Origin: an uncultured virus (IMG/VR IMGVR_UViG_3300031853_000024)
Lineage: Duplodnaviria > Heunggongvirae > Uroviricota > Caudoviricetes > Schitoviridae
Virus record (IMG/VR): IMGVR_UViG_3300031853_000024
DNA length: 64,000 nt
Strand: one strand, 5' to 3'
The position numbers were made by a program, and so were the translations under genes. A model generated the notes under the pieces. It did no database searches and had not been told where the DNA came from. It worked only from the letters and a program-made list of their open reading frames with translations. Shown one piece after another: positions 15,201-43,584 of the stretch. How positions within the stretch are numbered: position 1 is the first letter of the stretch; the number at the start of each line of letters is the position of its first letter.

Positions 15201-18200
15201 TCAGGAGTTTTCTCATTGGTAAATGCATCAATGATTTGTCTATTAGCTATAGTATCACCATCAGCAAAATCACTCATTTGATAATTATCTACAAAAGTAT
15301 TAAATACTTTCTGTAATTCCTGTCTTTCTCTAGGTGAAGCATGTCTCCAAACAGTATGAGCATATTCATGTCTGAATGATTCTGTTTGTGATTCACCTCT
15401 ATTAGCTCTACCTAAAGTAATTTGTTCTCTAACAGCTATACCTGTTGTATTATCTCTAAGTAATGCTACTTGAGAATCACCTATAGTATTAGAATTTTCT
15501 TTTACATAGAGAGCAATAGGAGTAGAGGATTTAACCATTAAATCATCTAACCAACCTAAATCATTATCAGCAGTATCTACACCTCTACTTGCATCAGATT
15601 GTTTACAAATATCTAATGCACCTCTAAATGCTACTTCACCATTAAGCATTTCACCTGCCTGTTCATTAACAGTATTAGCATTAGAGTAACCTCTCATATT
15701 ACGTACAGCAGATGTATTAAGACTTTGAGTATATTCTTTATTCTTTACATGTTTAATACGTGTAAACGTAGATAATGCAGCATTAATTGCACTTGATATA
15801 CCATGCATAATACCATTTCTAGCTTCCTTAACATCTTTAGTTAATTCAGATGCAGTATGTTGATTTAAACCATTAAGAACAAAGGTATTATAGTTAAAGT
15901 CTGTATCAGGAAGTATATATTCACCTTCTACTGGTTTAGAATGAACAAAAGTAAATGTATCTACACCATCAAGTGATAACTCACTCTGAATAGCTCTCAT
16001 ACAGCAGGCATTAAAGGTATTAAGATTTGTATCATAGTTATTAATTTCTAAGATATTTTCATTAAGTAAATATCTAGGAATAGGTATTCTCTTACTACCT
16101 GTATCTGCAGAATCACTAGCATTACGCTTAATGAAATTAAATGTATCACTAGCATCTCTTATGGCTGAACGATTTAACCATTGAGCCAAAGAAGAACCAA
16201 TAACTACTTCTTCTGCATATGTTCTATTACCTCTCTGTTTAGTTTGAATAGCATCAAACAATTCTGACTTAGTAACAGATGAATCTACAGTTACTTGGAA
16301 TACAAAGTGTCTAGTAACACCTGTAGAGTCTGTAACTTTAATTACTCTTGGTTTAATGTAATCTTTCCATGTAATATCACCTCTCATGTATTTAGCATAA
16401 TCAGCTCTCATAGAAGATTGAACCTGATATAAAGAGTTCTTTACATCTTCTAAATCCAAGAGTTTAAGATTATTAGCTACAGGAGAGCCGTCAGCACATA
16501 GATTAATAACCAGAGCTCTATTATCATTAGATACATCATTCGTTCTATCATAAGCTAATACAGATTTTAAATCTCCATCTTTAATTGAATAAGTATTAAG
16601 ATTAAGTACATTTGTTGGTTTAAAACCAGCAGAAACAATACTATTTAACTCTTCTTCAGAAGCATTTACATATTCAGATAAATCAATATCCTGTAAACTT
16701 CTATTACGAATACCATGAGTACTAAGAGCTATTTCAGGTAATACTGCATCATCTTGAGTAGATGTTTTCTTTAATTCACCTATTTCATCAGTAAAATTAA
16801 TTACATATTTATCAGCTTTAGTTTTAGCACGTTCAATAGTAGTACTTTCACCATTAAAATTTACTATATTTACTTTAGCATTATTATCAGGAATACGAGA
16901 TATAATTGCATTTTCAGATATAGTTTTATCTGTAATAGCTTCAATTAAAGAATTATTAGATAGAGCTGTAGGAGCTTTATTATAAGTAACTTCTTTTAAG
17001 TTCTCACCTAATAAAATTCTTAATTGGTCATAGATATTAACTTCTTTATCTACTCTAGGAGCATTATCTGTTTTATCTGTAATAGCAGGTACTACAACAA
17101 TAGTAGCTTGAGGTATCTCACCCTTTGAAATAAGATACTGTAAACCATGCATACGAAGTACATCAGTTTTAGACCTAAGAGTAAATACAATCTGAGAACC
17201 AGCCTCTATATTAGAATATCTATTCTTTAATGGAGTAGTTACATTATCAGTAAACCATCTAGCTGTAGCTGTAGTTAAATCCTTATAAGAAGCATTAACT
17301 TCTTTCATCTCATCAGAAGATGCATTATATTTATTAACCTTGGATTCTATATAAGACCAAGTATCATCTAAATTAAGATTATCACTATAGTCTATATAGG
17401 TTGGTTTACTTGTATCTAAGTTCTGTGGAGCAACATTATAAACATTAATTAAACCAAGATTAGAAATAATGTTATTAAATGCTAGTTGCTGCTCATGACT
17501 TACTTTATTATTTAAAGCTATGCCTACGGCATCTTGTGCTATAGATAATATATCCATAGGTGTAATTACTGCTTGAGCAAATACATTCTTATTTGCCATA
17601 ACAGCTTTATATACACACTCACGTACATAATCATCTTTATCATGTAGAGATACATTATTTATTTTTTGAGTAAAGTAATGAACAAGATTAAATATAGAAG
17701 TAACTGCAGCAGCTCTATTAGATGTACTATTTTTTAAAGCATTTTTTACAGCATTAGCATCTATAGTATCTTTACTAGCTGCTTTTACTGCATCTCTTAT
17801 AGATAAATCTTTTAATACATCTTTTTCTCTATAACCACGAATAATTGCAATAGCAGCTTTACGTAATGTTCTTCTATATTCTAATGCTTGTTCTCTATTA
17901 GTAGTCATACTTTTAACAATATTATCAATAGTAGACTTAATATCAGTACCAATAAATTCAGTTTTTAATTTACCATTTTTATCTAATAAATTAAATTTAT
18001 AGCCATCTCTTACTCCTGCTAATAGTGAAACCAAGCTGAACTCACTATCAGTATTATTTAAACCATCAATAAATACCTGTAGTCCATAAGAACTATTATC
18101 AGAAGTTTTAATGAGATTATTGTATTGATCAATCTCAGCCTTTAAATCTTCTTTAGTAGGTGTATAAGCTGAATCTTCATCTAAACTAAACTGATTGATA

Positions 18201-21200
18201 TGAAGTAATCTTGTATCTTTTGTTGGATTAGTTACAGGATTAATAGGATCTTCATAAACTTGTAACATTCTTTCAGCTTCAAATAAACCTTTATATAAAA
18301 CATCTATTTGAGTGCTTGTTTTAGTTTGGTTTAGAGTACGCTTATATTGAGATACTAATTGCTGTTTAATATTATCAGGTAAATCTGATGTAGCTACCCA
18401 ATCCATAGCATTCTGTAAAGATTTATCTCTTTCAACACATATTTCAGCAATCTTAGCTTTATCTTTATAGAATATTCTATTTAAGTCTTTAATAGCTTTA
18501 AACTGTCTTAATTCAGCTATCATAGCATCATGGATAGGTAAACCTTTACCATATCCTTTTCTAATAAGTAATTCCTGGAAGTTAGTCATATTAAAACTAT
18601 CCATAGAATGTGCAGTCATAGGTGATTGACCTGCACCTAAACCTTCTAAATAAGGAGATTTATACTTGTTAGATAAAATTAATTTAGAACCTTTTAATAA
18701 GGTCATAGAACGTAATCTAGTTCTAACATCATTAGTAATAGATGCTTTAAATGTACTTAAATCTGAACCAGAAAGCTTTTCATTTACATTATCTGTAATA
18801 CTAATAATAGGATTAAAGATTTGTAATAATTTCTCTGAAATCCTATCTATTTCTTTAGCTAAATCTAAACTAGATATTTCAGAATTAGGATCAGGGAATA
18901 ATTTATTAATCTCATTTTCTAATACTACATTATAAGCAAAAGCATGTTGATTGGTTGCAAGATTATTCATATTAAGAATCTTTTGACCATCTTCCATAGC
19001 TTTAGATGTAGCTACATAAATAGGGTCTAATACATTCTCTCTCATCTTGGTTTTCATAATATTATTATCTTCAAGCTTGAGAGTAACTCTACGTCTATTC
19101 TCTATATTAGTTAAATCAGTATTAACTTCTTTGCCTTTAATTTTGCCTTGAGCATCTAAGTAACAATCTGTATCATCAAATTTAATAGCTATTGGGTTAT
19201 TACCATTGTACTTTACTAATGCAGAAATAATAGGTATAAGAGCTTTAGTATCTACACTAGGGTCTGCTAATACAGAAGATAATTGGTCATTAATTAATTT
19301 GAAGAAATCCAAACTAACTGATTCCATACCTGCACTATAAGTAATATACATTACAGGATATTTCATAAAGTTACGAGTCATAATTCCTCGCAATGTATCT
19401 ACCAGATTAGTACCTAATGTTTCACCATAAATAAGAGTTAGTAATTCTGTAGATTCATCAGTTTTAAATCCATTTCTAAGCATTTCATTCATAGCTTTTT
19501 GAGCTACATCATACTGAGCAAAAGCACCTGAAATAAGATATGTATCAAGGAAGCCATTATCAAGAATATCTACAAAGTTGGTAAATAATGGAGTAATACC
19601 AACACCTGTAGATAGCATTGATTCTAATGTATCACCACCAGAATATAATGAACCAATCATAGCTCTAATAGCAGGACCATTAGTAGTACCATCTATTTCC
19701 ATTCTAAGAGTGTAATTAGTTATAGTATCATTTACTGCTGGTTCAATAAGATTATTAATTAAATTAACATCATCTTTAATAGCTTTACCATTTACTTTAA
19801 CTTCTCTTAATTTCATTAAAGTATAAACAGTTTCATGGTTAAATTTTAATTCTAAAGGTTCAGCATTTGTTTTATTACCTTCACCATAACTAGGCTTAAT
19901 AGAAGTAACAGTTACATTTAATGCTTCATCTTTTGAAGATGCATTAAACTTATCAATAGCTTCTTTCCAAGTATCAGGTCTATCAGGATCAAATTCTTTG
20001 AGTAAAGTTTTAAAAGCAAGACTATTAGCTAATGATTGCTTAGTTGAATTAATTTGATCAGGAGTCATTTTATCCCAACCAATATTTAAACCAGCAAAAA
20101 TAGGTAATATTAAATCATTTGGTTTAACTTTCCAATTCTTACCATCTTGTGTTCTTTCCTCTCCAATAGTGTATTCAATACTGCTTGTATCTTTATTCAT
20201 TTCAAATAAGTTTCTAAGAATCTTATCTTCACGATAGTTCATAGCAATATTGTTTACAAAGAATCTGTTATTAACAGTATTCTCTTCATCATAATAAACA
20301 GGTACTAATCCTGATTTATGCTTTTCATAGATATTATGAGATAACCAATTAAGAGATTTAATTAATTTCTTAATATTCTCTTTATTACGGGTATGAATAT
20401 CTTTATTAAAAGTACCTGCTCTTGTATCAGGGTCTTTATAATCAATAAGAATACCTAATGTAGGATTTTTCATTATAGCATCTCTAATTGAAGCAGCAGA
20501 TGCATATGTAGATTCATCAATTAATACTTTACCATTATCATCAATTAAACCATTCATCATTAGTTTAGTTCTTTCTACATTAAGTAATGGTGGTCTAATT
20601 ATGTTACTGCAAATTTGCTGTAAACGAAGAGAAGTTACTTCAGTATTATCTTTCTTATATAAAATATTATCATTAAAATAATAAGATTTAGAACCTTCTG
20701 TATATTTAATAATTCCATTATCTGTATCATGTCTAATAGATATTTCTATCTTTTGACCTGATTCAGGGTCATCAAAAGAATCATCTTTAAATAATTCAAT
20801 AGAATTATTATCATTATATTCTTCACTAAGTTTCTTCTGTTTAGCCTCAAATGCATCTTTATCATATGGGTCTTTATATCTATTAGTAAAACCAAGAATA
20901 TTATCTAATACTGACTCTTTAGTGTCTGACTTATTAGTAAAGGTATCAATAGAGTCAATTTTATTTCTTACTGCATCAATTTCTTTATTAAGAGTTACTA
21001 CATTAATTGAGTTAGAAAAATCATTACCTTTTTCTGCAGCAATATAATCACCTGTAGCTCTATTTAATCTACCTACATTGATATAACCAAGTTTATGCAT
21101 TAAGGCAATACAATGCATACCTGTATCTAATACAGCATATTCATATATAGTAGGACTCTTATTCTTATCATAACCAAGAGCAGTAGCACATACTTTACCC

Positions 21201-24200
21201 ATATCTGTAGCTAAAGTATTTAAGTCTACACAGTTATTCTTTTCAAAATATTCTACTATTCTAGGTGCATTAGGATAACGCTTATGTAATTCTTTCTTAA
21301 ATTCTTCACTTAATGCAGTACTAATAGTAGGTAATGTTCTAAGTACAACTGCAGCAATAGTATTAACATACTGTTCAGAATACATATCACCAACAGTTTC
21401 AGTTTGAGATGTAGTGTGTTTCTTAACTGAATCTACTACAAACATATCCTGAGCTTGCATAGCTGCATCACGAATCATATCTACTAATTCATCTACAGCA
21501 GCATTATCTGCATTATCTTGTTTAAGTCTTTCTAATGCATTATCCTGCATTAAAGATGATTTATATCTATCTTTAAATATTCCATTATATTTAGAACCAA
21601 CAGCAAATTGTCTTTGTTCAATAACACTTGAAGAATTGCCTTTAGGTAAATTTAATTCTTGTTGGTTTTCAAGACTAATAGAATTTTTAACACCATTAGC
21701 ATTAATATAATGAGCAAATGCTATAGCTAATATCTGAGCATCTTTTTTTGACTCAATAGTATTAAGAGCAAAAGAAGAATCAATAAATACATTATTTTCA
21801 ATTAAATTCTTCTGATATTTATCCCATATAGCAGATGCTTTAAGATTTGCATTATTATGAATATAAATACCAACATTTGATGCTGATATACCATTAGCAG
21901 ATAATATATCTCTAAATGAATCTAAATCCTCACTGGTTACTTCATCTGGATTAGGGATAGCTACATGTTCATTATATGTAGGAATAGTCATATAGAGCTT
22001 ATCAAAGATTTTATTAGCTTGTTGTAATATTTCAATCTTATCTTTTTTAGCTAATTTCTTTAATTCTCTAAATAAGATTAACTTACCATAATTCTTTCTC
22101 AAAAATACTTGTACCTTTTCAGGAAGATTAGCACTATTAATAGTACCTCTTACACTATTTATATTAAGAGTTCCTGTAGTAATTAAATCTCTTATTGCTT
22201 TTGGTAAAGGTCCTTTTGAACTTAATAATTTATCTAAAGTATAAGTTTCACCACCTACTTTTATACTTGTAGCTTTTAATTCAGCAAGTAAAGAATCATA
22301 TAGATATTCAGCTTTAGCAGTTGCTAAAGCTACAGAAGATGCAGTACTAATACTTGTCTGTTTAGCTAAACTATCTAATAAAGATACTTGTAAAGCAAAT
22401 TTAGCTTTATTACTTAAATGCTTACTTTGATCTAATTTTTTAATAAATTTATTAATATTGTCTTTAATAGTATTTTTATCTAATTCAGGATATGTAATAT
22501 TTACAAAGTCTTTATCAGACATTGTACCTTTCATTTCTAATATACCTAAACTAGCTAATACTTCTCTTCTAGTTAATAAATGTCTTACAATCTTGGCTTG
22601 TATTGATTTATTACCTTGGTTGCCATAAGCATCAAAATCAGCTTTCCAATTTCTACGTTCATTAAGATTATCTTTATCACTAAAGAAATCTTTAACTATA
22701 GGGTCTGTAGCACTATCAGCTAAATCCTGCCAAACTTTACGTTTAGTATTTTCTCTAGTTGTATAAGTTAAATTAAGGAAAGTATTCCAAATTTCATCAG
22801 GAATAATATTAGCTATTTCAGGCATTAACATCTCAGTTCTAGTCATTTCTGAACCAAGATACTTAGATAATACAGCTCTTGATTCAGGTGAAATAACATT
22901 AGAGCTAATATTTAAATCAAACATATCTTCTATTACATCAGAAAAGTCTATAGCAGATGCATCTTCACCTGTAGCTGTAGGAGTAATACCTAATTCCTCA
23001 CATTTATTATTAAATTGTTCAATGTATCTAAGAGATTTCTCATGCATACTTCTAGCTGATTCAGATGATGCAGAATCAACTAATGAACCAAATAAAGTTC
23101 TAATTGTAGTACTTGTTTTATAAGTATCACTCTTAACAATACTAAGAATATTATCAATAGCTAATTTATATGGCTGTAAAGGTACAACACCATTAACAGG
23201 AGCTAAATAAATATCAGAATGAATATAAGAATTTAATTTACGTTGAATAAACTCTAATTGCTCAATATTTTCTTTAGATAAAGGGGATGTATTAAATATA
23301 GCTTTTAAACCATCTTGGTCTAATGAAGATATATCTTCAAATATACCTAAATTATTAAATGCTATGTTTAAATCCTTTTGAAAACTACCATTATAAGGAT
23401 CTAATCTAATACCATTTAAATGTAATCTAGTTAGTTCTTCCTGTTCATGTTTAGAATAGTTTCTAAATTTCTCTAATCTATTCATAAACTTAACAGTACT
23501 TTTAACTTGAGAATAACCTGTCTGTCTATAGGTAGAATCTATAAATACATTCTCTTCTTTCTTTTTGGTTTTAAAGTATTTAGCATATCCACTAGATTTT
23601 TTATTAGCTTTATCAATAGCATCTTGTAATTTAAGAAGGAATATTCTTTTATCTTTAGCAGATAATTTATCATATGCATCTAATGTAATACCATCTACAG
23701 CATTAATATTTTTAGCTACTTCAGCAAATTCCTGTTCTACACCTTTAAGAGTATTTTCAGTATCATTAGCTAAAACACCTTTAGTAGTAGCACTAGGAGT
23801 ACCTGCTAATTGATGTATTAATGATTCTAATTTAGAATATTTTCTACTTGGTTCAGTAATGTAATAATGCTCTTTACCATCTTTATCTTTAACAGTATTA
23901 AGCTTGTAATCAACACCTTCAGTAAGACCTTCTGTAGCTTTATTTACATCTTCTACAGTGTCATATAACTTCCTATTAGTAGATTCAGCTTTAGCATTAT
24001 GCATATTAATATCAGCTTGTTTTGCTTTAGCAAAATCTTCATAAGCTTTTCTAAACTCTTCTTCAGACATAGATTTATTTGTTTTATTATATGCATTAGC
24101 TATAGCACTGTCTGAAGCATATTCATTATTATCTTTGTTCTTATATGCTTCATTGAATATATCGTTAAACAACTTATTAGAGTATGCTTTCTCTTTATCT

Positions 24201-26899: not shown

Positions 26900-26934
26900 A
26901 AAAAATACACCTATTCAAAGTTAAAGTTTGAACA

Positions 26935-26964
26935 AGTGTATTTATGCTTTTTTAAAAATGTCAA
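26935..26964 (-). promoter_or_regulatory. sigma70-like promoter upstream of vRNAP
   Basis: TTGACA-N18-TACACT on the minus strand. Confidence 0.55.
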
Positions 26965-26968
26965 TATT

Positions 26969-28684: not shown

Positions 28685-28687
28685 TTA

Positions 28688-29506: not shown

Positions 29507-29518
29507 TAAATCACCTCA

Positions 29519-30307: not shown

Positions 30308-30322
30308 ATTTTATACCCTCAA

Positions 30323-31177
30323 TTAATGTAATAATTCCCAAGCTTTATTAGCCCAATAACTTGATGCACCTGTCATTTTATCTAATGCAGTACCAAGACC
30401 ATATCCTGCTAATCCTGCACCTGTAACAGCTCCACCAATACCTGCACCAACACCTAATCCTGCTAATGCACCTGAACCTGATAAAGCACCCATAGCAGAG
30501 CCTACGGCTCCTGCTGTACCTGCACTAGTTGCTATATCACTAGCTACATTTGATAAGTTGTAAGGTTTGTCACCATTACCATATTGAGCTAAATTAGCAG
30601 CTTCACCTACTAAACCTAAACCACCTAAAGCTTTACGTAAATAAGGATTATTAAATGCATTAATAGCCTTATTTCTAATGCTGTTTTCTTCAGCTAATCT
30701 ATTTGCTTTAGCTTGGTTTAATGCCGATTGAGATTGCTTAACATTCTCATCATTAGCTGCTCTCATAGCTTCTAATGCAGATGCTCTAGCTAATCTTGAT
30801 TTCTCATTATTATTTAGACTGTTAAAATCTATACCTTCAGCTAATGTATATCCAGGTGATACTAAACCAAAAGAATTAACATATGGTTTAACTGTAGCTG
30901 CACTAGTTACAATAGGGTATCTAACTCTAGTAGGAGTAAATAAACCTTCACTATAAGTTACAGGTATTTTAGATTGTAAATAGCCTCTATCTACAAGAGG
31001 TTTTAAATTCTTGTTATATTCGAGGTCTACTTTACCTGCTTGTCTTTGAGCTTTTAAGTTATTTAATCTAGCTTGGTTTTCAGCATTAATATAGTTAGCT
31101 AAATATCTATTTGTAACATTTCTATCTAATGCTAAATCACCAAGGTCACTAATAGAATAATTATTATTATCTGCCAT
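30323..31177 (-). CDS. putative ejection protein with Gly/Ala-rich membrane-inserting C-terminus
   Basis: GAVGSAMGALSGSGALAGLGVGAGIGGAVTGAGLAGYGLG glycine-zipper. Confidence 0.6.
   Translation of the reverse strand: MADNNNYSISDLGDLALDRNVTNRYLANYINAENQARLNNLKAQRQAGKVDLEYNKNLKPLVDRGYLQSKIPVTYSEGLFTPTRVRYPIVTSAATVKPYVNSFGLVSPGYTLAEGIDFNSLNNNEKSRLARASALEAMRAANDENVKQSQSALNQAKANRLAEENSIRNKAINAFNNPYLRKALGGLGLVGEAANLAQYGNGDKPYNLSNVASDIATSAGTAGAVGSAMGALSGSGALAGLGVGAGIGGAVTGAGLAGYGLGTALDKMTGASSYWANKAWELLH
30498..30510 (+). promoter_or_regulatory. TAC-loop hairpin element inside a late gene
   Basis: GAGCC-TAC-GGCTC. Confidence 0.55.
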
Positions 31178-31755
31178 TATAATTGATGTCCTTGCCAGTT
31201 ACGTTTCTGCATAGCAAATGCCTCTTTATTACGAGCTTCTTGATCATAGTAAGCTTGTTTCTTTAAATCATAATCTCTTTGAGCCATCTTTAATGCCTCA
31301 CGATTATTCTTATAGGATTGCCAACCATTCCATATAGAACCAATAGCATTAATAGGAGCTAAAGGATTTTGTTTAATGTAATTTCCAATACCTTCTAGAT
31401 ATTCGTCCCAGAATCCTTTTTCTTCATAATTTTTATTTCCTAATCCCATAGGAATACCATTATTAGCATAATAGTCTCTAACTGAAATAGGTATACCATC
31501 TCTCATAAAAGGGGTATTAGGATTATAATCATCATTAATCTGGGTATTAGGTGTTTGTACATTTGTTGTTACAGGATTACTCATTTGATCTTCTTTATCC
31601 CAAAAAGAAGTATCTACGGGTGTATATCCTCTAGTTCCTATAGGACTAATATAATTATTAGCCTTATAAGGTGCTGTAATAAAAGAAGGTCTACCATCTC
31701 TTATAAATGGGGTATTTGAATTTTCATATAGATTAGAGTCCCATACATTAGCCAT
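31177..31755 (-). CDS. putative ejection protein (N4 gp52-like position)
   Basis: start MANVWD after GGAG; AIGSIWNGWQSYK followed by coiled coil; internal repeat NTPFI/MRDG.P. Confidence 0.6.
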   Translation of the reverse strand: MANVWDSNLYENSNTPFIRDGRPSFITAPYKANNYISPIGTRGYTPVDTSFWDKEDQMSNPVTTNVQTPNTQINDDYNPNTPFMRDGIPISVRDYYANNGIPMGLGNKNYEEKGFWDEYLEGIGNYIKQNPLAPINAIGSIWNGWQSYKNNREALKMAQRDYDLKKQAYYDQEARNKEAFAMQKRNWQGHQL

Positions 31756-31876
31756 TATTATCTCCAAGTTATGTTACTTAGAGACAATAAGCCAAAGCAT
31801 AGTCTATAAGTAACTGTTAATCATAATCTGCTTTGGCTTAACCAATAGATTGTTCAAAAATTAATTTAATAAAATA

Positions 31877-34312
31877 TTAAATGTCAATAATTCTTGGCTT
31901 TTTAATTTGACTAGCTATTTTATAGAAGTTATATTCAGTACCTCTAATAAGAGCATCAGTAATAACGCCTAATGCAATAGCATTATTATTACTTAAAGCT
32001 ATACTAGCTTTATATTCAGATGTTTCAATTAATCTACCAAGTGTTAACATTTGATTATTAAGTTTTTCTAGTCTAGTTCTCTGCTTATTAGACTGAGATT
32101 CCATTTCAGCTTGAAATGCTTTAGTTATATTATCAGGACTAGCTAATTTCTTAGCTACTTCCATATTAGTTAATTGCAAAGAACTTTGTAATGATGCTGC
32201 AGGTTTAGCACTAATAGCTTTTAACATTGAACTAGCAGCAGAAGATAATGCTGCAGCCCAATCTTTAGTTTGTAAAGCATAATAAAACTGAGGGTTAGTA
32301 GAAGTATCTAGTAAAAATCCCATAGTAGGAGATACTGTCATAGTTTGAGTTACTGCTACTGAACCTAATGCACTAGCAAAAGCTTCTAATGTAAATTTAC
32401 CATTAACTAATGTAGTAGCTAATGATGTAATCATACTAGATGTTAAAGTAGATAAAGATGTAGTTACAGTAGTTGTAGTAGTTACTGATGTACTTCCAAC
32501 CTGTACTACTGCACCTGTAGAAGTAGTTGATGTAGCCATTTGTGAAGGTAAATAATAAATACAGTATATATCTAAAATTGTTTCTAATATGGCTTTAGTA
32601 GCACCCTGTATATGGCAAACTCTACATATAATTTTAAAGGCTATTTTAATGGCTAAAACCAAAAGTAATTGAATAAGAGCTTCAATGGATAAGACTGATT
32701 TAATAGCTGGTGCTGTTCCTGCACCACTAGTACCAATAGTTACAATTACAATATAAATTATATAAATTACTATTCTAACAATAGTAAACCATTTAGATTG
32801 ATACCATTTCTTTTTAATCTTCTTATAAGTGTTATGAACACTACGCATAGAAATAGCAATAATATCATTACCAATGATACCACCTATTTTATTATTAAGA
32901 ATAAATGGTAATACAGGTAATAAACATTCATTAGGGTCTGAATTATCATCTTCTCCGCCCTCTTCAGGATCTTTATGTTTTAATCTTTCTATTTCTTTAG
33001 GTGTTAATCCTCTAGTATTAGAAAAGGTAGGTACAGTTCTATTCATACCATGACCATTGTTATATGAAGTAAATTTAAGATTAGTAACTAATATTTCTTC
33101 ATATTTACCCTCATCTAATTGTTTTCTAATGCGTAAACAAGACTCTCTTGTAGTAATATCTATTGTAGATTGTCCTATAGATTTCTTATGTACTACAGTT
33201 TGTTCAAAGCTTTCTGTAGTAAATCTATGGAATGGTGCTATATGACCATCTTTGATTTGATGTGTAATGCTACCCCATGAAATATCATAGTTAAATGCTT
33301 TATGCCTATAATAGATATTATTAGCATTTAATCCACTTGAATCATACATGTATTTAAAAAACTCATACATGTATCTCATAACTCTTTGGTCATTAGCTGT
33401 AATATCTAATGCAAAAGTAAGAGCTATATCTGTTACATTTCCAAGACTATCTCTATACTGTTTATCTTTTTCTGTTGGATTATTTAATTCAGCTTCACCA
33501 TTAAATGAATCTACTAAGTCTTCATAATCCATATTAAAACGCTGGAATATCTTACAGCATAGATTAAAGTAATTAGGATCGTTTCTTTTAATGCTATCTT
33601 TGTCTTTACGCATCAAAAATGATGGATAGTAAGTTACCCTATTACTATCAAACCAAGTACGAAATACATCATTCTGAGAGGCTGTATTCCATATGTAATA
33701 TTCTAGTTTATCTTCTTGGTTTTTATAGCCTACTAATAAGTATGATGCATTTAAATCACCTGTAAACTGAATACCTGTATTTAATTCATGATAATCAGAC
33801 ATTATTTGAGCTGATGGTCCACCACCTACAACTCTATCTTTCTTATAACGTACATAAATATAATCTGTTTCATCTAAATATGTAGATACATAATCATATT
33901 CAATTTCATCTACAGTTAAATGTTCACCATCAAATGCATAATTATCTTCTAATGTACGTAAAGCCAGACATTTAAATAAAGCTTCACATGGTTGCATGAT
34001 ACGAGATGATTCTAATGAACCAATTTCCATATCAGTAGCTTGTTCAAATAAAGCTTTAGTTAAAGGTCTAGTAATTAAACTACCTTCAGGCGTACCTAAT
34101 ATAGATGCAAATCTACCCCCTACCTGACAGTCTTTAGCAATATTATTAAGTTTACCCACTAAACTATTTTGTGCTGTATCCTGAAAGATACGAGGTAAGT
34201 ATGAACCTTTATTAAAAAGATAATTAGAGATACAACCCTTGAGACTATTACTTATATCCCAAGGGTTATTAAGAGCTTGTGTTTGAGTATGATATATCTT
34301 TTTACTACCCAT
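31877..34312 (-). CDS. N4 gp53-like structural protein
   Basis: 811 aa; KKKWYQSKWF followed by TM helices; synteny. Confidence 0.75.
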   Translation of the reverse strand: MGSKKIYHTQTQALNNPWDISNSLKGCISNYLFNKGSYLPRIFQDTAQNSLVGKLNNIAKDCQVGGRFASILGTPEGSLITRPLTKALFEQATDMEIGSLESSRIMQPCEALFKCLALRTLEDNYAFDGEHLTVDEIEYDYVSTYLDETDYIYVRYKKDRVVGGGPSAQIMSDYHELNTGIQFTGDLNASYLLVGYKNQEDKLEYYIWNTASQNDVFRTWFDSNRVTYYPSFLMRKDKDSIKRNDPNYFNLCCKIFQRFNMDYEDLVDSFNGEAELNNPTEKDKQYRDSLGNVTDIALTFALDITANDQRVMRYMYEFFKYMYDSSGLNANNIYYRHKAFNYDISWGSITHQIKDGHIAPFHRFTTESFEQTVVHKKSIGQSTIDITTRESCLRIRKQLDEGKYEEILVTNLKFTSYNNGHGMNRTVPTFSNTRGLTPKEIERLKHKDPEEGGEDDNSDPNECLLPVLPFILNNKIGGIIGNDIIAISMRSVHNTYKKIKKKWYQSKWFTIVRIVIYIIYIVIVTIGTSGAGTAPAIKSVLSIEALIQLLLVLAIKIAFKIICRVCHIQGATKAILETILDIYCIYYLPSQMATSTTSTGAVVQVGSTSVTTTTTVTTSLSTLTSSMITSLATTLVNGKFTLEAFASALGSVAVTQTMTVSPTMGFLLDTSTNPQFYYALQTKDWAAALSSAASSMLKAISAKPAASLQSSLQLTNMEVAKKLASPDNITKAFQAEMESQSNKQRTRLEKLNNQMLTLGRLIETSEYKASIALSNNNAIALGVITDALIRGTEYNFYKIASQIKKPRIIDI

Positions 34313-35085
34313 TAAGATGTTCCATCATCATTAACACTTGCACCAGGAGCCCAGTGATTTCTGTATTGTTCATGCTCACCTGAATATTTAGAGGTATTAA
34401 GTTCAGTAATACCAAAAGCTCTTCTTAAAGCATTTAAATACTCTACAGAGTTACCACCATTAAGACCATAATAACTAGCACCTACACCTTCTGCTGATTC
34501 AATAGTAGCAAATGGAGTAACAGCTAAATCCTTAGCTAATGAAAGATAAGATGCTTTATTAGCATTATCTACAGTAGCTTTAGATGCTTTTATTTCCTGT
34601 CCTAATACACCATGAATATTGCTATTTTCGCCTTCATAACATTCCTCATCATTAGGAATAATATCTTTGGTTTTAGCTAATTCAGTTAAAGCTTGAGCTT
34701 TAATTAATGGTATTTTCTGTTTTTCCTGTTCTAATTGAACTTTAGCTATTTCTAATTGGGCTTCTTCAAGTTTAATTTTAACTTTCTGCAGCTCTAACTC
34801 AAGTTTAAGTTTCTCTTTTTCAAGCTTTAATTTTTCAAGTTCAATCCAAGAATTATCCTGTTGTAATACAAACTGAGTAGACAGTTGTAATACAGTCTGA
34901 ATAATCCCTAGATAGGTAGTAGCATAATTACTTCCTGTAATACGCTGTTTCTTATATTCGTCCTGAATATGTAGCTCTGCTGATGCCATTAAGACATCAA
35001 ATACGCCACTACCTGTTAGAGAACCTTTAGTTAAATCATTAATATCTTTTGGTTTGATATTAGTGTCATCAATAGTAATATCCAT
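34312..35085 (-). CDS. N4 gp54-like virion protein
   Basis: LTKGSLTGSGVFDVLM..H..EY...RITG..YA N-terminus, coiled coil. Confidence 0.8.
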   Translation of the reverse strand: MDITIDDTNIKPKDINDLTKGSLTGSGVFDVLMASAELHIQDEYKKQRITGSNYATTYLGIIQTVLQLSTQFVLQQDNSWIELEKLKLEKEKLKLELELQKVKIKLEEAQLEIAKVQLEQEKQKIPLIKAQALTELAKTKDIIPNDEECYEGENSNIHGVLGQEIKASKATVDNANKASYLSLAKDLAVTPFATIESAEGVGASYYGLNGGNSVEYLNALRRAFGITELNTSKYSGEHEQYRNHWAPGASVNDDGTS

Positions 35086-35609
35086 TAATTAGCCTGATTT
35101 GCTGCATCTCTTAACTGTTTATCTTTACGCATATTATCAAATTCTTCTTTGGTAATAGGACCCAATTCTTCTACGGTATAAGCAGGCTTTAATTCTTTTC
35201 TTACTTCTTCTGATTGTGAATCTCCTAATCCTGAGTTATAACGTACATCAATATTTGATGGTACATATAGATACTGTTGTGATTTAATATGCTTAATCAT
35301 CTGTTCAGATAAAAACCAAGGTTTATTAAATGGTACTGCTACTCTTTCCTGAGATGTAGAGTTCATAAGCATAAAGTACTTAGCCTGCATATGTAATTCA
35401 TTTGGATTAAGAGGAATTACTCTTACTCTGCGTTTAAGTAATTTATTCTTGGTTTCTTCTTTCTTTACAATTATCTGCTGTTCCTTTTCCTTTTCTTTCT
35501 CAGCCTTTTCAATCTTGGCTAATAAAGTATCGTCTGAGGTTTTGGCAGTATATTTAATACCAAGCTCATCTGCTTTGACTCTTAGTTCTTCAGTTGTAAT
35601 TGCTGACAT
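35085..35609 (-). CDS. N4 gp55-like protein
   Basis: ELRVKADELGIKY, RRVRV.PLNP, VPFN..W; follows the capsid gene. Confidence 0.75.
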   Translation of the reverse strand: MSAITTEELRVKADELGIKYTAKTSDDTLLAKIEKAEKEKEKEQQIIVKKEETKNKLLKRRVRVIPLNPNELHMQAKYFMLMNSTSQERVAVPFNKPWFLSEQMIKHIKSQQYLYVPSNIDVRYNSGLGDSQSEEVRKELKPAYTVEELGPITKEEFDNMRKDKQLRDAANQAN

Positions 35610-35620
35610 TTATAATCTCC

Positions 35621-35644
35621 AAAAAAGGGCTACTGTGTAGCCCT
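35621..35644 (-). terminator. intrinsic terminator after major capsid gene
   Basis: AGGGCTAC-AC-AGTAGCCCT stem plus T6 on the minus strand. Confidence 0.8.
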
Positions 35645-35669
35645 AAAAATAATATGACAAAAGGAAAAA

Positions 35670-36896
35670 TTAAATTCTTGCTACGGACTTAATACACATA
35701 AGTCTTTCATTACGCAGAATCATAGTACCATAAGTCCACTGAATAGACCAAATACCTCTACGACCATAAGGGTCATTAAAGTCCATGGTTGCTTCACCTG
35801 GTTTCTTATGCATTACTTCAAAGTTGAAAGACTTACCATTAGTACGGAAACCAATAGTAGTAAATGACTCAGGCCCAATAATCAACATAGGATATACGTT
35901 GTAGTTAGTACCATTATTATCCATAGTAGGTGAGTCAGCTACTGCTGTACCAGCACCTTCAAATCTAAGCATTTCAGGTACTTCTACAATACGGAACTCA
36001 TATACTCTACCAATTTCACCTTTAACAGGCTGTGCACCTGCTGCATACTGTTCTACAGGAACAAATGCAGGTCTGTTATGCATATCAGTCATAGCCATAA
36101 AGGTAGGACGCATTTCAGGACCAACATACAGAGTCCAACCACCTGCTACAGTACGAGTATCTACATTAGTAGAACCTGTAAACATTGAGTAGGATTTAGG
36201 TACTCTATTCTCCTGAAGAATCTTAGCAATCTTAACCAAGTCGTTATAGGTAATTTCTGAAGTTTCACCCATATCTGAGTTTTCATCATTACCTGCACCG
36301 CAATAGTAAGTAAATGCACCAGCACCATTAATCAAATCAATCTGAAGAACATCTTCAGTGATTTCATTAGCACCTCTAAGAGCTTCTCTAGTAAAGTGAG
36401 AGATAAGAGCAGGGTCAGTATCATACTGTTCTGCATCTCTAGTATATTCAAAGAAGAAACCCAAATCAGAAATAGTACCTTCAATTACATCACGGGTAAA
36501 ACCAACACGGTTATATCTACCACCTGTTTCACCGATTACAGGCAACTTACCTACGATAGTAGAAATATCTTTAGATGAACCATAGATATTACCATTAGCA
36601 TAAGTAGCACCTGTAGCATCAATACCCTGATCGTTGATATTTCTATCATCTAACAGTGGTCTCCAAACATATTGTTTAATGTGTTTACCATTGTTAGGAC
36701 CAAGAGTAGTTACAGTTGCCAAAGGCTGAAAGTACTGTTCTTTAACAGCTTCAATCAATGCATCACGTTTAAAGTAATCATTAATAAGCTGTTTTTTAAT
36801 AGTACCTGTATCTGCTACCTGACCATGGTGAGTATCTTCCCATGGACCTCTACCACCATTACCATACTGCATACCTAAAGCTGCGTTATAAGGCAT
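35670..36896 (-). CDS. major capsid protein (N4 gp56-like)
   Basis: KEQYFQPLA, PLLDDRNINDQGIDA, GETGGRYNRVGF, DPYG..G.WSIQW.YG.MILR.ER. Confidence 0.95.
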   Translation of the reverse strand: MPYNAALGMQYGNGGRGPWEDTHHGQVADTGTIKKQLINDYFKRDALIEAVKEQYFQPLATVTTLGPNNGKHIKQYVWRPLLDDRNINDQGIDATGATYANGNIYGSSKDISTIVGKLPVIGETGGRYNRVGFTRDVIEGTISDLGFFFEYTRDAEQYDTDPALISHFTREALRGANEITEDVLQIDLINGAGAFTYYCGAGNDENSDMGETSEITYNDLVKIAKILQENRVPKSYSMFTGSTNVDTRTVAGGWTLYVGPEMRPTFMAMTDMHNRPAFVPVEQYAAGAQPVKGEIGRVYEFRIVEVPEMLRFEGAGTAVADSPTMDNNGTNYNVYPMLIIGPESFTTIGFRTNGKSFNFEVMHKKPGEATMDFNDPYGRRGIWSIQWTYGTMILRNERLMCIKSVARI

Positions 36897-36899
36897 ACG

Positions 36900-38039
36900 T
36901 TATCTCCTCATTAATTCATTAATATCAATCTTTGCAAATTCCTCATCAGAACATGTCAACGGATCATATTGAGTAACAGCTCTACCTGGTGAAGACCTTA
37001 CAGGACTAGCACCCTGTTTCCTCTGCTGTACTGCATTAAACTGCTGCTGCTGATAAGCCTGTTGATTCTGTTGAGGTTGTACCTGTGGTTGCTGCGGAGC
37101 TGACTGATTAGAATTTGCAAAATACTGATTTGCTACAACACTAAAAGCGTCCATATAGTTGAGTCCTCTAATACGTGGGTCACCAACTATCTGCATATGC
37201 TCTAGTTCCTGCTTAATTGGTTCATAATGACCATTCTTAATAAGGTCACTTAAAACCAAGTAATAATTAGGATTTCGTGCAAAGGTATTTCTTGATTCAG
37301 CATCAAAGTCATCTAAAGCATTATCTACTTTAGAGTACATATCAGACTCTTTAAGCTGTTCTACTACTTCTTTAAAACGAAGTTTTTCAGGACTGATACT
37401 ATAGTTGTTAGGGATATAAGGGGTAGTTTCTACTGGTTTTTGATTTCCAAATTCATCTACTTCCTGCTGTGGCATAAGAGAATTAATATCAATACCTTTA
37501 TCCTTAATCAATTTAGCTAAAGCTTTAGGATTACCATTATAAAGGTCTATTGCATAATTCAGATTGTCACCAAGCATACCTTGTTCTTCAAGAGTACGCA
37601 TTTCCACTAGTCTTGGTTTCAATGCCTGCTGCTTACGGGTGTAATCAACACCTTTCTGCATTAGTGATATTGCCTCATCTACATTTCTAACCTGAAATTC
37701 TTTACCATTTGCTTTAAATGGTGAATAGATTTTTTCATAAGTCTGCTTGTAGATTTCAGGGTCTAATTCTTGCTGTTGTTCTTGCTGAGTAGTAGGCGTA
37801 GCATTAACAACATCATTATTATATTCTTGCTGTTCAACCTGTGGTTGATTATCAACAACCTGTTGTTGTTCTTCCTGTGGCTGTTGATATTGATAGTCTT
37901 GCTGATAATTCTGTTCCTGTGGAACCTGCTGTTGCTGTTGTGCCTGAATATTAGCTGTTTTTCTATCAAAATCTGCTAATAGTTCATCATAGTTAATTTT
38001 CTTAAAATCTTCATCGCTAACATAATTATTATCTATCAT
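36900..38039 (-). CDS. N4 gp57-like scaffolding-type protein
   Basis: PFKANGKE..V....EAI.LMQKG.DY..K motif; Q-rich low-complexity arms; precedes capsid gene. Confidence 0.8.
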   Translation of the reverse strand: MIDNNYVSDEDFKKINYDELLADFDRKTANIQAQQQQQVPQEQNYQQDYQYQQPQEEQQQVVDNQPQVEQQEYNNDVVNATPTTQQEQQQELDPEIYKQTYEKIYSPFKANGKEFQVRNVDEAISLMQKGVDYTRKQQALKPRLVEMRTLEEQGMLGDNLNYAIDLYNGNPKALAKLIKDKGIDINSLMPQQEVDEFGNQKPVETTPYIPNNYSISPEKLRFKEVVEQLKESDMYSKVDNALDDFDAESRNTFARNPNYYLVLSDLIKNGHYEPIKQELEHMQIVGDPRIRGLNYMDAFSVVANQYFANSNQSAPQQPQVQPQQNQQAYQQQQFNAVQQRKQGASPVRSSPGRAVTQYDPLTCSDEEFAKIDINELMRR

Positions 38040-38340
38040 TCTGGGACTCCTCTATAGCTTTATAAGTTTCAGGATTATTTAATCCTTCTTTAGCTTGTTC
38101 ACCTTCCATGTGTAATGAACGGAGAAATTCTCTGAAGCAAGAGATTGCCATTAACCTGTCACAACGGTCTTTATACTGACGTTCATTAGCTGCCTGAGAT
38201 AACAACAATACGAGAGCATCAGCATTACCTTGACAATAGCCTTCAATAATTACTTTCTTGAAGTCTTCATTGTTTTCAAGTCTTTCTAATGCTTCTAGAG
38301 TTGCTACTTGTTCTTTAGCTTGTTCGATTGTATAAAACAT
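38029..38340 (-). CDS. N4 gp58-like protein
   Basis: ALERLENNEDFKKVIIEGY; between portal and scaffold. Confidence 0.8.
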   Translation of the reverse strand: MFYTIEQAKEQVATLEALERLENNEDFKKVIIEGYCQGNADALVLLLSQAANERQYKDRCDRLMAISCFREFLRSLHMEGEQAKEGLNNPETYKAIEESQNDR

Positions 38341-40673
38341 TATTTTTTGGTTCCTTTCTTATTTTGAGATTGTTTAGTCTTTTCCTGCTCAATCATATAA
38401 TCCATGAATTTTTCCTGCATAGATTTATCTGCTTGAGCTTTAGCCTGTTGAGCCATAAGTTCCATATCCTGCTTATGCTTAGTACCCTGAATATCATTGA
38501 GATAATCAAGATTAAGTTTCTGAGCCATAGACTGATTGTATTGAGCTTTAGCTTGTTCAGACTGAATCTTACTAAGTAACTCTTGTGGTCTAAGCTGCAT
38601 ATCAAGTTGAGTACCATATATTTCACTTTGAGCTTTAGCATTAGACAACTGAGTATCAGCTTCAGATTTACCTGCTTCTGCATGTAATTTTTCAATCTGA
38701 GCCTGTAATAATTCAATCTGCATTTCCTGCAGTTTTTGCTGCATTGGATCAGGAGGTGGAGGAGTAAATCTTCTTACTCTTTCAGCTAATTCAGGCATTT
38801 TACGTAAATCACAAATCTCAGATAAAATCATCTGAGTCATTTCTTGATTAACAGTATTACCTAATGTCTGTAACATAAATGCTAATGATTCAGCTTTAGC
38901 TTGATTTTCTTCAGCACTAGTAATAGCCAACTCTAAATCAAAATTACCAGCTAAATCATCTCTATGTATTTCTACAAAGTCTTGGTTTGTAATACGAATA
39001 ATTTCACTGTCATTAAGCCAAAGAGCATTCATAGCTATAATCTTTCTAGCTACTTTCTTTATACCATCAGCTAATCTTCTAAGAATACCTAATTCTCTCT
39101 TAGTAGCTGAATCCAATACAGATTTAACACCTTGAGCTGTATTACCTAATGAATCACCTGTAATACCCTGATTATAGGATTTAACACCTGTTAATGACTC
39201 TGCTTCCATTTCCTGCGATTGTAAGAATGGAAGAATAGTCTGAGGTATTTCAGGGAATGTATGTTGGAAGATACCCTGTTGAGGTGTCATAGTAGGATTA
39301 AATTCATAATCCCTGCCTTCTGTAAATGCTTTCTTATTTACAGGGTCTAAGAACTGCATAGCTGTACCTGTTTGAGAGTTAGCACTCTTAGCTAATAAAT
39401 CTATAACACCTCTAGTTACAGCACCTATAATAGCTTGGTTATCAGCGATTAACACACCATCAGGTTCACCATATATTTCATGAATAGCAGGTAAATAAGG
39501 TACTACTACAAATGGTGGTTTATGATCAGGGAATGGATTTTCCTCTAGCCTAATCATAATATCACCAACCCAAGTAGCAACAATAGGAACTTTAACACCA
39601 TTATTGTTAATATCCCAATTACCCCAATATTCATATACAGTTAATTTTCTTCTAGCTGAATCCTTAAAGTTATCACTAAAAGAATCATCAATATCTCTAG
39701 TTGCTGTATCAGGGATTAATTCTACATTCACATATCTACCATCTTGTAATAAATCTGATTTACATGAAGTAAATCTATAAATAAAGTATTCAGCTTTATC
39801 TACATCGCCTTCACAAGATGGATCTATATAAATGTCTTTGTAATAACATAAATCAAGAGTAGGTCTGTTTATTACTTTGGTTTGTCTTTCATAAACAGTG
39901 CCTACTTGAACAGGTTCATAGGCTATTGGAGGGAGAGATTGAATATATTGTTGAGCCTGTTCAAGTAACTGTTGTTGCATCTGTTGCAGTTGTTCTTCAG
40001 CCATACCTGACTGTTTATACTGTTCTAACTGCATCTGAATATTAGCAAATACCTGCTGTTGTCTTTGCTGTTCTTCCTGATTAGCTAATTCAATACACTG
40101 AATCCACTGTTCAGGAATATTACCAATATTGATTGAGTCTTGATAGAGTTTTTTAACTCTCTCAAATCTATTGACCCCTACGGGGTCTTCAGGGTTAATA
40201 GGTTTAGGTTGATACTGTGGTTTAGGAACATCAAGATAATCTTCTTTTTCTTCCCAACCAACTCTGATTATTGAAGTACCTGTATTAACAGCACTACGAA
40301 TATAATCATCAATAAACTTAACCTTGTTAATTTGGGTATTGAACTGATGATTTAGGACTAATTCATTCTGTTTTGCTGCATAGCTATCTTCATATGTTAC
40401 AGGATTAACTTTGAAGATATTGTTTTCAGCTAAGAATGGTTCTGTAAGAGCAGAGTAACGCCACTCAGCCTGCTTACGTATTAACTTGGATTGGACTGTG
40501 CTACGAGTTTTGCCTCTCTTGTGGTCATAAGGTATAGGGTCAGCTTTATACTTAACCAAGTAGTCATCAATTAGAGCTTCCTGTTTGTCATGACTTGATT
40601 TACAATTTACATAGTCATCTTTCAAGTCAGCAACGGTAGGCTCATTAGCCCAATTAGTTAGTTTATAGTCCAT
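38340..40673 (-). CDS. portal protein (N4 gp59-like)
   Basis: LTNWANEPT, KLIRKQAEWRYSALTEPFL, RLEENPFPD.KPPFVVVPYLP, LAGNFDL. Confidence 0.95.
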   Translation of the reverse strand: MDYKLTNWANEPTVADLKDDYVNCKSSHDKQEALIDDYLVKYKADPIPYDHKRGKTRSTVQSKLIRKQAEWRYSALTEPFLAENNIFKVNPVTYEDSYAAKQNELVLNHQFNTQINKVKFIDDYIRSAVNTGTSIIRVGWEEKEDYLDVPKPQYQPKPINPEDPVGVNRFERVKKLYQDSINIGNIPEQWIQCIELANQEEQQRQQQVFANIQMQLEQYKQSGMAEEQLQQMQQQLLEQAQQYIQSLPPIAYEPVQVGTVYERQTKVINRPTLDLCYYKDIYIDPSCEGDVDKAEYFIYRFTSCKSDLLQDGRYVNVELIPDTATRDIDDSFSDNFKDSARRKLTVYEYWGNWDINNNGVKVPIVATWVGDIMIRLEENPFPDHKPPFVVVPYLPAIHEIYGEPDGVLIADNQAIIGAVTRGVIDLLAKSANSQTGTAMQFLDPVNKKAFTEGRDYEFNPTMTPQQGIFQHTFPEIPQTILPFLQSQEMEAESLTGVKSYNQGITGDSLGNTAQGVKSVLDSATKRELGILRRLADGIKKVARKIIAMNALWLNDSEIIRITNQDFVEIHRDDLAGNFDLELAITSAEENQAKAESLAFMLQTLGNTVNQEMTQMILSEICDLRKMPELAERVRRFTPPPPDPMQQKLQEMQIELLQAQIEKLHAEAGKSEADTQLSNAKAQSEIYGTQLDMQLRPQELLSKIQSEQAKAQYNQSMAQKLNLDYLNDIQGTKHKQDMELMAQQAKAQADKSMQEKFMDYMIEQEKTKQSQNKKGTKK
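40173..40187 (+). promoter_or_regulatory. TAC-loop hairpin element inside portal gene
   Basis: GACCCC-TAC-GGGGTC. Confidence 0.6.
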
Positions 40674-40701
40674 AAATCACCTGTTCAATAAATTGATAAA
40701 A

Positions 40702-40731
40702 AAGGTATTTAATTGTTTTTTTAATTGTCAA
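40702..40731 (-). promoter_or_regulatory. sigma70-like late promoter upstream of portal
   Basis: TTGACA-N18-TACCTT on the minus strand. Confidence 0.5.
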
Positions 40732-40741
40732 GGAATTTTTT

Positions 40742-42528: not shown

Positions 42529-42539
42529 GGAGAAAAAAA

Positions 42540-43563: not shown

Positions 43564-43584
43564 ATTTATATAGGAGTATTAATC

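Follow-up and report, generated by a model that had tools for sequence, protein, structure and literature searches.

Candidate promoter hairpins in the late-gene codons of an uncultured N4-like phage

The recognition of hairpin promoters and the coupling of genome entry to transcription have their model in bacteriophage N4, whose virion-polymerase promoters are generally assigned to no more than the left 10% of the genome. In the sections of a review that treat N4 early transcription, the promoters P1-P3 are placed in this leftmost 10% and described by a GC-rich heptamer that has its centre at -11 and by a sheared G:A pair within the loop, while the virion RNA polymerase (vRNAP) is stated to need a purine at the loop centre (PMC4496689). 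Citing unpublished data, the same review lets early and then middle transcription, by vRNAP and then by RNAPII, drive the injection of the genome and lets the promoter-bearing left end enter first (PMC4496689). Here, we describe three hairpins of a comparable architecture that lie inside late genes, and antisense to them, in an uncultured virus of the Schitoviridae (IMG/VR record IMGVR_UViG_3300031853_000024). The whole stretch of 64,000 nucleotides (nt) that was analyzed, referred to as the window in the following, represents an N4-like podophage with approximately 31% G+C, in which a late block on the minus strand (1541-40673) is followed by plus-strand genes from 40742 on.

For the N4-like phage LUZ7, nine early and four middle promoters have been reported, mostly of the hairpin type, and early and middle transcription in LUZ7 and LIT1 was found to run almost entirely rightward, genome-wide and antisense through the late cassettes (PMC9163698). 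The antisense RNA of LIT1 was proposed to silence late genes, and, where that study comments on the antisense coverage in LUZ7, it is ascribed to middle transcripts extending across the late cassettes and not to promoters inside late genes (PMC9163698). The middle promoters, which are used by RNAPII and Drc (LUZ7 gp14; PMC7145618), are described as a GC-rich stem of at least 6 bp with a loop of 3-4 nt approximately 15 bp before a G start, and tandem hairpins are described as 33 nt apart (PMC9163698). In our own inspection, the tandem hairpins of LUZ7 were 32 nt apart, stood before a gene annotated as ORF14/toxin, and had a TAC loop, as in the window. In phage T7, promoters are spread along the genome and are read by a single-subunit RNA polymerase, and DNA entry is driven by transcription; these are duplex promoters, and the genes are co-directional with them. 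At the level of DNA structure, a G-N-A triloop closed by a C.G pair is reported to give unusually stable mini-hairpins of the type d(GCGNAGC) in the parts of the source that concern this motif (PMC13037366). Within the literature on N4-like hairpin promoters, antisense transcription, and genome injection, we found no description of hairpin promoters written into the codons of late genes. Signals of this kind, and rightward transcription antisense to late genes, are both already known.

The three hairpins are the following, where tail-less means that the bases directly after the 5-nt 3' arm do not read [C/T/G]TA[A/T].

17520-17532, plus strand: hairpin 1, ATGCC-TAC-GGCAT, 5-bp stem, inside the vRNAP gene at D-A-V-G-I (amino acids 3123-3127), tail-less
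30498-30510, plus strand: hairpin 2, GAGCC-TAC-GGCTC, 5-bp stem, inside the open reading frame (ORF) 30323-31177 at G-A-V-G-S, tail-less
40173-40187, plus strand: hairpin 3, GACCCC-TAC-GGGGTC, 6-bp stem, inside the portal gene at D-P-V-G-V (amino acids 164-168), tail-less

A preliminary description of the window had placed hairpins at 17520, 30498, and 40173, and these exact sequences were found there. Of the host genes that it had named, vRNAP (phrog_2206) and portal (phrog_1216) stood, while the "ejection protein" proposed for 30323-31177 did not: this ORF gave no PHROG hit and no Pfam hit above the cut-off, and only its position is suggestive. On the coding strand, the hairpins read GAT-GCC-GTA-GGC-ATA (site 1), GGA-GCC-GTA-GGC-TCT (site 2), and GAC-CCC-GTA-GGG-GTC (site 3), which returned the described codons GCC-GTA-GGC twice and GAC-CCC-GTA-GGG-GTC once, and all three sites share one reading frame at [A/P]-V-G. 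The description was also right in that the hairpins face against the late genes, with all ten copies of the family introduced below on the plus strand, and in that an NTAA-type tail is missing, as the bases after the 3' arm are CTTG, CTGC, and CTTC at sites 1-3, respectively, versus [C/T/G]TA[A/T] at six other sites of the family. Likewise, the first two hairpins had been said to lack a plus-strand gene downstream, and no plus-strand ORF of more than 54 amino acids was found within approximately 1.1 kb of sites 1 and 2. Between these sites and 40742, the only plus-strand ORF of at least 100 amino acids is one TTG-started antisense frame (24135-24662). Site 3 differs, as it lies 565 nt upstream of the plus-strand dUTPase gene, and no family member was found between 40183 and 42839; the start of the portal gene and the dUTPase gene are 68 nt apart. 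Therefore, the earlier suggestion that the hairpins mark something "rather than gene promoters" fails for this site.

When the 39,112 segments of 21 nt in the late block were ranked by nearest-neighbour folding, sites 2 and 3 came within the 40 most stable, with energies that exclude a triloop bonus and score both strands alike. The stem of hairpin 2 can be extended to eight pairs with one bulge. No T run of an intrinsic terminator follows the three stems on either strand, and a terminator scan near the late sites gave only an alternative weak fold at 30507-30490 on the minus strand, with nine terminator-like hits versus 5.9 expected in the region. Neither an Rfam match nor a tRNA gene was found in the window.

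The codons that build the hairpins are rare in the 24 late ORFs, at usages between 1.6 and 7.1%: GCC accounts for 2.7% of the alanine codons, GGC and GGG for 7.1 and 2.2% of the glycine codons, CCC for 1.6% of the proline codons, and GTC for 2.2% of the valine codons. The flanking codons that extend the stems are rare as well, and GTA, at the loop, is the commonest valine codon (55.8%). When synonymous codons were shuffled within each late gene, none of 2000 shuffles reached the three copies of the loop heptamer (CCTACGG when read on the plus strand) that are observed on the late coding strand, with 0.107 expected. Tripeptides of the form [APST]VG occur only nine times in 12,939 late-protein residues, and in three of these nine the codons spell the heptamer. 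Of C-GTA-G hairpins whose stem has at least 5 bp, three were observed on the late coding strand versus 0.181 expected (reached by 1 of 1000 shuffles), and none on the opposite strand. The late-gene copies are kept by selection at the DNA level, on rare synonymous codons, as had been suggested; both the shuffles and the strand-specific excess of C-GTA-G speak for it.

The three hairpins belong to a family that extends over much of the window. The heptamer CCTACGG is invariant in ten copies, all of them on the plus strand, while a mean of 0.44 and a maximum of 3 copies were found on both strands in 100 dinucleotide shuffles. All ten sit on perfect stems of 5-6 bp, and of the nine perfect hairpins in the window with a 3-nt loop and three G/C inner pairs, eight have the TAC loop on the plus strand. 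The sites were chosen by the heptamer alone, which covers the inner two stem pairs; the three outer pairs nevertheless match in 30 of 30 cells, and 12 of the changes among them are double. When the five stem pairs are taken together, 50 of 50 cells pair, and the observed covariation was reached by none of 500 shuffles. The minus strand reads C-GTA-G at all ten sites, which is a G-N-A triloop closed by C.G, and each site has a T at the loop centre and a C at position -8. Six of the ten (42839, 47004, 50102, 51095, 54224, and 57521) carry the tail [C/T/G]TA[A/T] directly after the 5-nt 3' arm; five of these six are intergenic, and five of the six are placed 39-50 nt upstream of a start codon. 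The remaining members of the family are listed here, with the tail given first.

42835-42853, plus strand: tailed (CTAT), intergenic, 50 nt before the ATG at 42889
47000-47018, plus strand: tailed (TTAA), intergenic, with the likely true start of RNAPII subunit 1 following after 50 nt at 47054 (ribosome-binding site AAAGGAG) and with a terminator-like stem upstream at 46809-46833
50098-50116, plus strand: tailed (TTAA), intergenic, with a terminator-like stem and its T run farther on at approximately 50163-50192
51092-51108, plus strand: tailed (CTAA), within the final codons of ORF 50609-51121; the ATG at 51135 follows after 40 nt
54221-54237, plus strand: tailed (TTAA), intergenic, 44 nt before a start at 54268
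57518-57534, plus strand: tailed (GTAA), intergenic, 39 nt before the helicase start at 57560
62441-62453, plus strand: fourth tail-less member, TGCCC-TAC-GGGCA, inside the plus-strand exonuclease gene in sense orientation, 182 nt before the primase gene

The lack of a tail goes with depth in coding sequence and not with antisense orientation, because the copy at 62441 is tail-less and yet sense-oriented. At the late sites, the tail is missing because a TAA on the plus strand would need the leucine codon TTA where Q, A, and E stand, and a missing tail need not block the binding of a polymerase. One-mismatch variants of the heptamer amounted to 44 versus roughly 31 expected, exact copies included, and they contained no clear extra family apart from CCTTCGG at 14874, which belongs to the following site.

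14871-14883, plus strand: possible extra late-gene site, CAACC-TTC-GGTTG in the vRNAP gene, template loop C-GAA-G, within chance expectation

From its positions and its architecture, the family most plausibly represents the N4-type hairpin promoter in the form that this phage uses. The copy at 47004 is presumably read by vRNAP, because the RNAPII genes must be expressed before RNAPII exists. At this copy, the listed ORF start at 46933 is probably wrong, and the stem, the hairpin (47000-47014), and the strong ribosome-binding site put the start of the gene in the RNAPII subunit-1 position at 47054. At 50098-50192, a hairpin is followed by no gene and, approximately 50 nt on, by a terminator-like stem, an arrangement that may correspond to a small RNA of approximately 75 nt from a hairpin promoter. 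An intergenic gap holds GGGGG-AGT-CCCCC at 45831-45843, followed by CCCCC, the sole strong GC triloop hairpin in the window outside the TAC family.

In comparison with N4 P1-P3, the family in the window has stems of 5-6 bp (5-7 bp in N4), a 3-nt loop, and a shared GC-rich heptamer on the loop, and, as in N4, the template loop is G-N-A closed by C.G and all sites point rightward. A census of the N4 genome gave hairpins of the same architecture at 90, 557, and 4546, with a GAA or GGA loop on the template strand. The copy at 47004 stands directly before the RNAPII genes and behind a terminator-like stem, as P3 stands before gp15 in N4. Unlike N4, the window has at least ten sites across 64 kb, four of them in coding sequence and three of these antisense in late genes, whereas N4 early promoters stand before early genes at the end that enters first. 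Furthermore, the three late sites lack the conserved sequence that N4 promoters have at a fixed distance between the stem and +1, and 62441 lacks it likewise. No member of the N4 promoter family was found in N4 late genes, and the single C-GTA-G hairpin there, in gp50, is within expectation.

With regards to LUZ7, the likeness lies in hairpin promoters that reach beyond the early region and in the T at the loop centre, which may be a lineage-specific trait. The late-site stems in the window measure 5-6 bp, set beside the criterion of at least 6 bp for the LUZ7 middle type. In LUZ7 (L095), we also noted ACAACC-TCC-GGTTGT at 66578-66592, inside the minus-strand terminase-like gene gp85 and pointing rightward to the small-ORF cluster at the right end. 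Its loop recurs in three further LUZ7 hairpins whose stems also reach 6 bp or more (8238, 9521, and 35252), and the hairpin may belong to the four middle promoters that have been published. As in T7, a chain of co-oriented promoters would let successive polymerases pull the DNA in; unlike T7, the last 40 kb are coded on the opposite strand and the signals are hairpins. With the last 40 kb on the opposite strand, such signals must hide in antisense codons. The template core C-G-T-A-G finally resembles d(GCGNAGC), which is a physical motif and not a biological system.

The comparison of identical codons across relatives covers site 3 only. Neither the vRNAP segment nor ORF 30323-31177 picked up a relative in scans of IMG/VR, and a metagenome scan with the portal found none closer than the loci L001 and L059. 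A scan of genome_contigs for homologues of sites 1 and 2 gave one match of low similarity, which was judged spurious. In L001 (95.7% nucleotide identity over 5.7 kb), hairpin 3 is unchanged. In L002 (78% amino acid identity in the portal), the codons read GAT-GCT-GTA-GGC-ATC, so that the peptide is DAVGI versus DPVGV in the window, and the stem shows two compensatory pair changes (C-G to T-A and C-G to G-C) with a closing pair that is now T.G. L002 gives the best same-site evidence for a conserved structure. Eleven other loci with portal identities of 60-76% have no hairpin at the codons of hairpin 3 (one of them, L006, begins just after these codons). Relatives at or below 73% portal identity use a different loop, with late-gene hairpins placed elsewhere. 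Within the portal gene, a hairpin was found on the coding strand at four codon positions (approximately amino acids 39, 164, 411, and 590) in four lineages.

L004, 8311-8327: portal hairpin, coding strand
L010, 11223-11233: portal hairpin, coding strand
L003, region of 11756: portal hairpin, coding strand
Window, 40173-40187: portal hairpin (hairpin 3), coding strand

The hairpin in the L004 lineage has an AAA loop and not G-N-A. The varied positions suggest that a rightward signal has been gained more than once shortly before the divergent dUTPase gene, and the divergent arrangement of portal and dUTPase genes is likewise kept in LUZ7 and in the genomes G001-G003.

The sister genome G001, a complete contig of 76,268 nt, has the same gene layout as the window, with 60% identity in the portal and 31% in vRNAP. 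Its hairpins use C-GAA-G: the pattern SSCGNAGSS occurs 13 times forward versus once in reverse, and GAA loops number 14 versus 2 for TTC. On the late coding strand of G001, stems of at least 5 bp were observed three times versus 0.062 expected (none of 1000 shuffles) and were absent from the other strand, while stems of at least 3 bp were observed five times versus 1.29 expected (7 of 1000 shuffles). A position weight matrix of the downstream signature, built from the non-late sites only, ranked four of the five late sites in the top 0.08-4% of late-block positions, while the fifth, with a 3-bp stem, scored as background. A downstream initiation signature that these late-gene sites share with the ordinary sites of G001 argues for promoters. 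In L065 (92% nucleotide identity to G001), all three comparable late hairpins are kept with no internal change, one of them within a stretch that has diverged by 12%. Partial contigs carry heptamers of their own, GCGGAGC in G008 and GCGTAGC in G006, with one or two copies on the late coding strand. Across these lineages, hairpin positions turn over, while orientation, strand, and each lineage's own loop type are kept. In the window, the gaps between the late sites are 12,978 and 9,676 nt; with three points, the spacing, given as roughly 10-13 kb in the preliminary description, is descriptive only, and its regularity was not reproduced in G001, where the late-gene hairpins have no regular spacing. 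In both genomes, approximately 16-18 kb without a hairpin precede the first hairpin of the late block.

The hairpins are fixed in strand relative to the genome, not relative to their host genes. We read the three of them as coding-embedded N4-type promoter cores that would load a hairpin-dependent polymerase for rightward transcription antisense to the late genes, and we put the probability of this reading at roughly 0.55. It is chosen because the sites are strand-fixed, because their core is the one found at clear promoter positions, and because the late sites of G001 carry the downstream signature. Mechanistically, negative supercoiling would extrude the hairpin, and the minus strand with its C-GTA-G triloop would serve as the template for rightward transcription. 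A hairpin-dependent phage polymerase would bind the extruded structure; since the same heptamer heads the RNAPII genes, this would be the injected virion RNA polymerase, and RNAPII may use the hairpin too. From approximately a dozen bases downstream of the hairpin, the polymerase would then transcribe rightward, in antisense to the late genes. Site 3 would also feed the plus-strand dUTPase block 565 nt downstream, and its position makes it probable that it serves these genes. Sites 1 and 2, which have no gene to serve, would renew rightward transcription over the approximately 23 kb from the vRNAP to the portal gene. The pay-off may lie in DNA entry, in an antisense damping of premature late expression, in both, or in priming.

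Several observations weigh against promoter activity at the late sites. The purine at the loop centre and the G at -8 are major recognition determinants in N4, whereas the window has T and C at these positions. The four tail-less sites score like background for the downstream initiation region (13th-46th percentile) and may be weak promoters or binding sites only. Conservation at the codons of site 3, which the preliminary description had named as a check, held for the nearest loci (kept in L001, compensated in L002) and not for relatives at or below 73% portal identity, in which there is no hairpin at the homologous codons; at identities of 92-96%, what is kept in L001 and L065 counts for little statistically. 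The sites in the vRNAP genes of the window and G001 are non-homologous, as they lie approximately 100 alignment columns apart in a poorly aligned stretch. Moreover, neither N4 nor G002-G005 show an enrichment of generic C-GNA-G hairpins in their late genes, so that either the late-gene feature is clade-limited or these phages use a motif that was not found here. For G002 and G003, this result is uninformative, because no GC-rich triloop hairpin family was found in them. Finally, the physical ends of the phage in the window and its direction of entry are assigned by analogy to N4 only.

Among the explanations that were weighed beside the promoter reading, a relay for genome entry as the main purpose is the one in which the left end enters first and the late hairpins reload polymerase so that the last approximately 23 kb without rightward genes are reeled in. 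All family members point one way whatever the orientation of the genes, G001 behaves likewise, and the hairpin-free 16-18 kb that precede the late-block hairpins in both genomes would fit, as would the statements of the N4 review on transcription-driven injection with the left end first (PMC4496689). On the other hand, site 3 lies only approximately 0.5 kb from the end of the late block and would add little pulling, the ends and the direction of entry are borrowed from N4, and N4 itself manages without such sites, which leaves the relay a tentative and rather doubtful explanation. A still bolder version, in which the vRNAP of this rumen clade works along a genome-wide, one-directional chain of hairpin promoters and reels in the whole chromosome in the manner of T7, with antisense RNA as a by-product, is offered as speculation that we would sooner doubt than adopt. 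That antisense damping is the main purpose, with hairpin-started RNAs that pair or collide with late transcripts and delay the structural genes, strikes us as unlikely. A transcript from site 3 would cover the first 490 nt of the portal gene and its start region, and the sections on LUZ7 and LIT1 that report early and middle antisense transcription over late cassettes propose late-gene silencing (PMC9163698). Yet the distal approximately 16 kb of the late block, with the tail genes, the terminase, and the C-terminus of vRNAP, have no exact family member and at most the variant at 14871-14883.

The tail-less hairpins could instead bind the polymerase, or another hairpin- or single-strand-binding protein, without starting RNA, and act as marks for replication priming, packaging, or nicking or as roadblocks to leftward late transcription. 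The four tail-less sites lack the downstream signature of the six tailed ones, and an orientation on a single strand suits any directional DNA process; in the older literature, vRNAP is given a role in the replication of N4 DNA. Since the coding frame blocks the tail, the late sites share exactly the heptamer found at clear promoter positions, and the late sites of G001 do carry the downstream signature, we consider binding without initiation improbable. A function as RNA stem-loops in late mRNA, for stability, processing, or translation, is very improbable. The hairpins are transcribed within late mRNAs and rank near the top of the late block in the stability of their 21-nt folds, but their orientation follows the genome and not the gene, and 62441 and the tailed copies would give CCUACGG in RNA where the late mRNAs would have CCGUAGG. 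In addition, G001 changes its loop at late genes and promoters together, and no Rfam family matches. Chance, or a by-product of the amino acid sequence and mutation bias, could appeal to GTA as the commonest valine codon and to [AP]VG as an ordinary tripeptide. It is hard to reconcile with the failure of all 2000 synonymous shuffles to reach three copies, the rare flanking codons that extend the stems, the same excess in G001 with another loop, and the compensatory changes in L002, and we regard it as extremely unlikely.

If coding-embedded promoter cores are what these hairpins represent, the always rightward signals in late codons would give a sequence-level handle on how the right half of an N4-like genome, gene-poor for rightward reading, is internalised, and likewise on the origin of the antisense RNA over the late cassettes in LUZ7 and LIT1. 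They show, cleanly and in a natural case, a protein code that carries a DNA-structure signal on top of it: compensatory stem changes alter amino acids, and the loop type shifts in step at promoters and late-gene sites between lineages. Should the genome-wide chain be true, promoter hairpins would form a directional code written into proteins that are read from the other strand. For annotators, the family is a warning that hairpin promoters in Schitoviridae-like phages need not be intergenic.

The genes that frame the three sites, together with the assignments on which their naming relies, are as follows.

38340-40673, minus strand: portal gene (phrog_1216), opens the late block and carries hairpin 3
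35670-36896, minus strand: major head protein gene
30323-31177, minus strand: late ORF of unassigned family between the gp53-like and gp51-position genes, carries hairpin 2
12248-26899, minus strand: giant vRNAP gene (4883 amino acids, phrog_2206), carries hairpin 1
9930-11519, minus strand: large terminase gene
40742-42785, plus strand: dUTPase gene (40742-41167) with small ORFs, bounded by the portal gene and the first tailed hairpin
47054-49324, plus strand: RNAPII genes, with subunit 2 at 47999-49324 (phrog_2051 and PF00940) and subunit 1 by position only

From 40742 on, the plus strand codes for the dUTPase, many small ORFs, RNAPII subunit 2, an ATPase, a helicase, a DNA polymerase, an exonuclease, and a primase. 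By BLASTP, only the C-terminal part of the vRNAP protein aligns with the vRNAPs of N4 and LUZ7, and a two-sequence profile comparison aligned the N4 polymerase domain weakly to amino acids 1754-2933 (P 8e-4, probability 25%). With the polymerase motifs located by the N4 residue numbers, the T7-type motifs A (..DGxTNGP), B, and C (..HDA..) match at approximately amino acids 2396-2790. For this polymerase domain, phmmer gave no PDB hit, and there was no Pfam hit. No cultured phage is close to the window, the best portal match among 50,697 phage records being 44.6% identical, and a megablast of 17000-21000 gave no match. Public runs with near-identical sequence are labelled bovine gut, and in four of these runs, relatives that are 85-99% alike over 17001-37000 were found in assembled contigs (2094 base differences).

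The vRNAP genes of the rumen clade are far above the 3500 amino acids of N4, with 4883 amino acids in the window and 4858 in G001 (34016-48592), and the vRNAP ORFs in G002 (9192-26693) and G003 (38414-55534) measure approximately 17.1-17.5 kb. A module of a gp69-like gene, the large terminase, and a virion structural protein (9241-12189 in the window) lies downstream of the vRNAP gene in the clade of the window, while the same module lies on the far side of the portal in LUZ7 (65485-68629) and N4. With the module downstream of the vRNAP gene, the portal is left as the first late gene, beside the dUTPase gene.

In G001, a hairpin at 61216 had been considered as firing straight into the late block, which was ruled out because a rightward ORF of 106 amino acids follows it. 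The "direct terminal repeats" of G003 and G005 were dropped as physical ends, as they are exactly 99 nt long and, in G003, an ORF spans the junction; they resemble the overlaps that are left when contigs are assembled as circles. In the window, a strong terminator-like stem, AGGGCTAC-ACA-GTAGCCCT followed by TTTTT, stands at 35626-35644 on the minus strand, directly 3' of the major head protein gene. A holin-like gene (phrog_785; 53883-54161, plus strand) stands among the replication genes, just ahead of a tailed hairpin.

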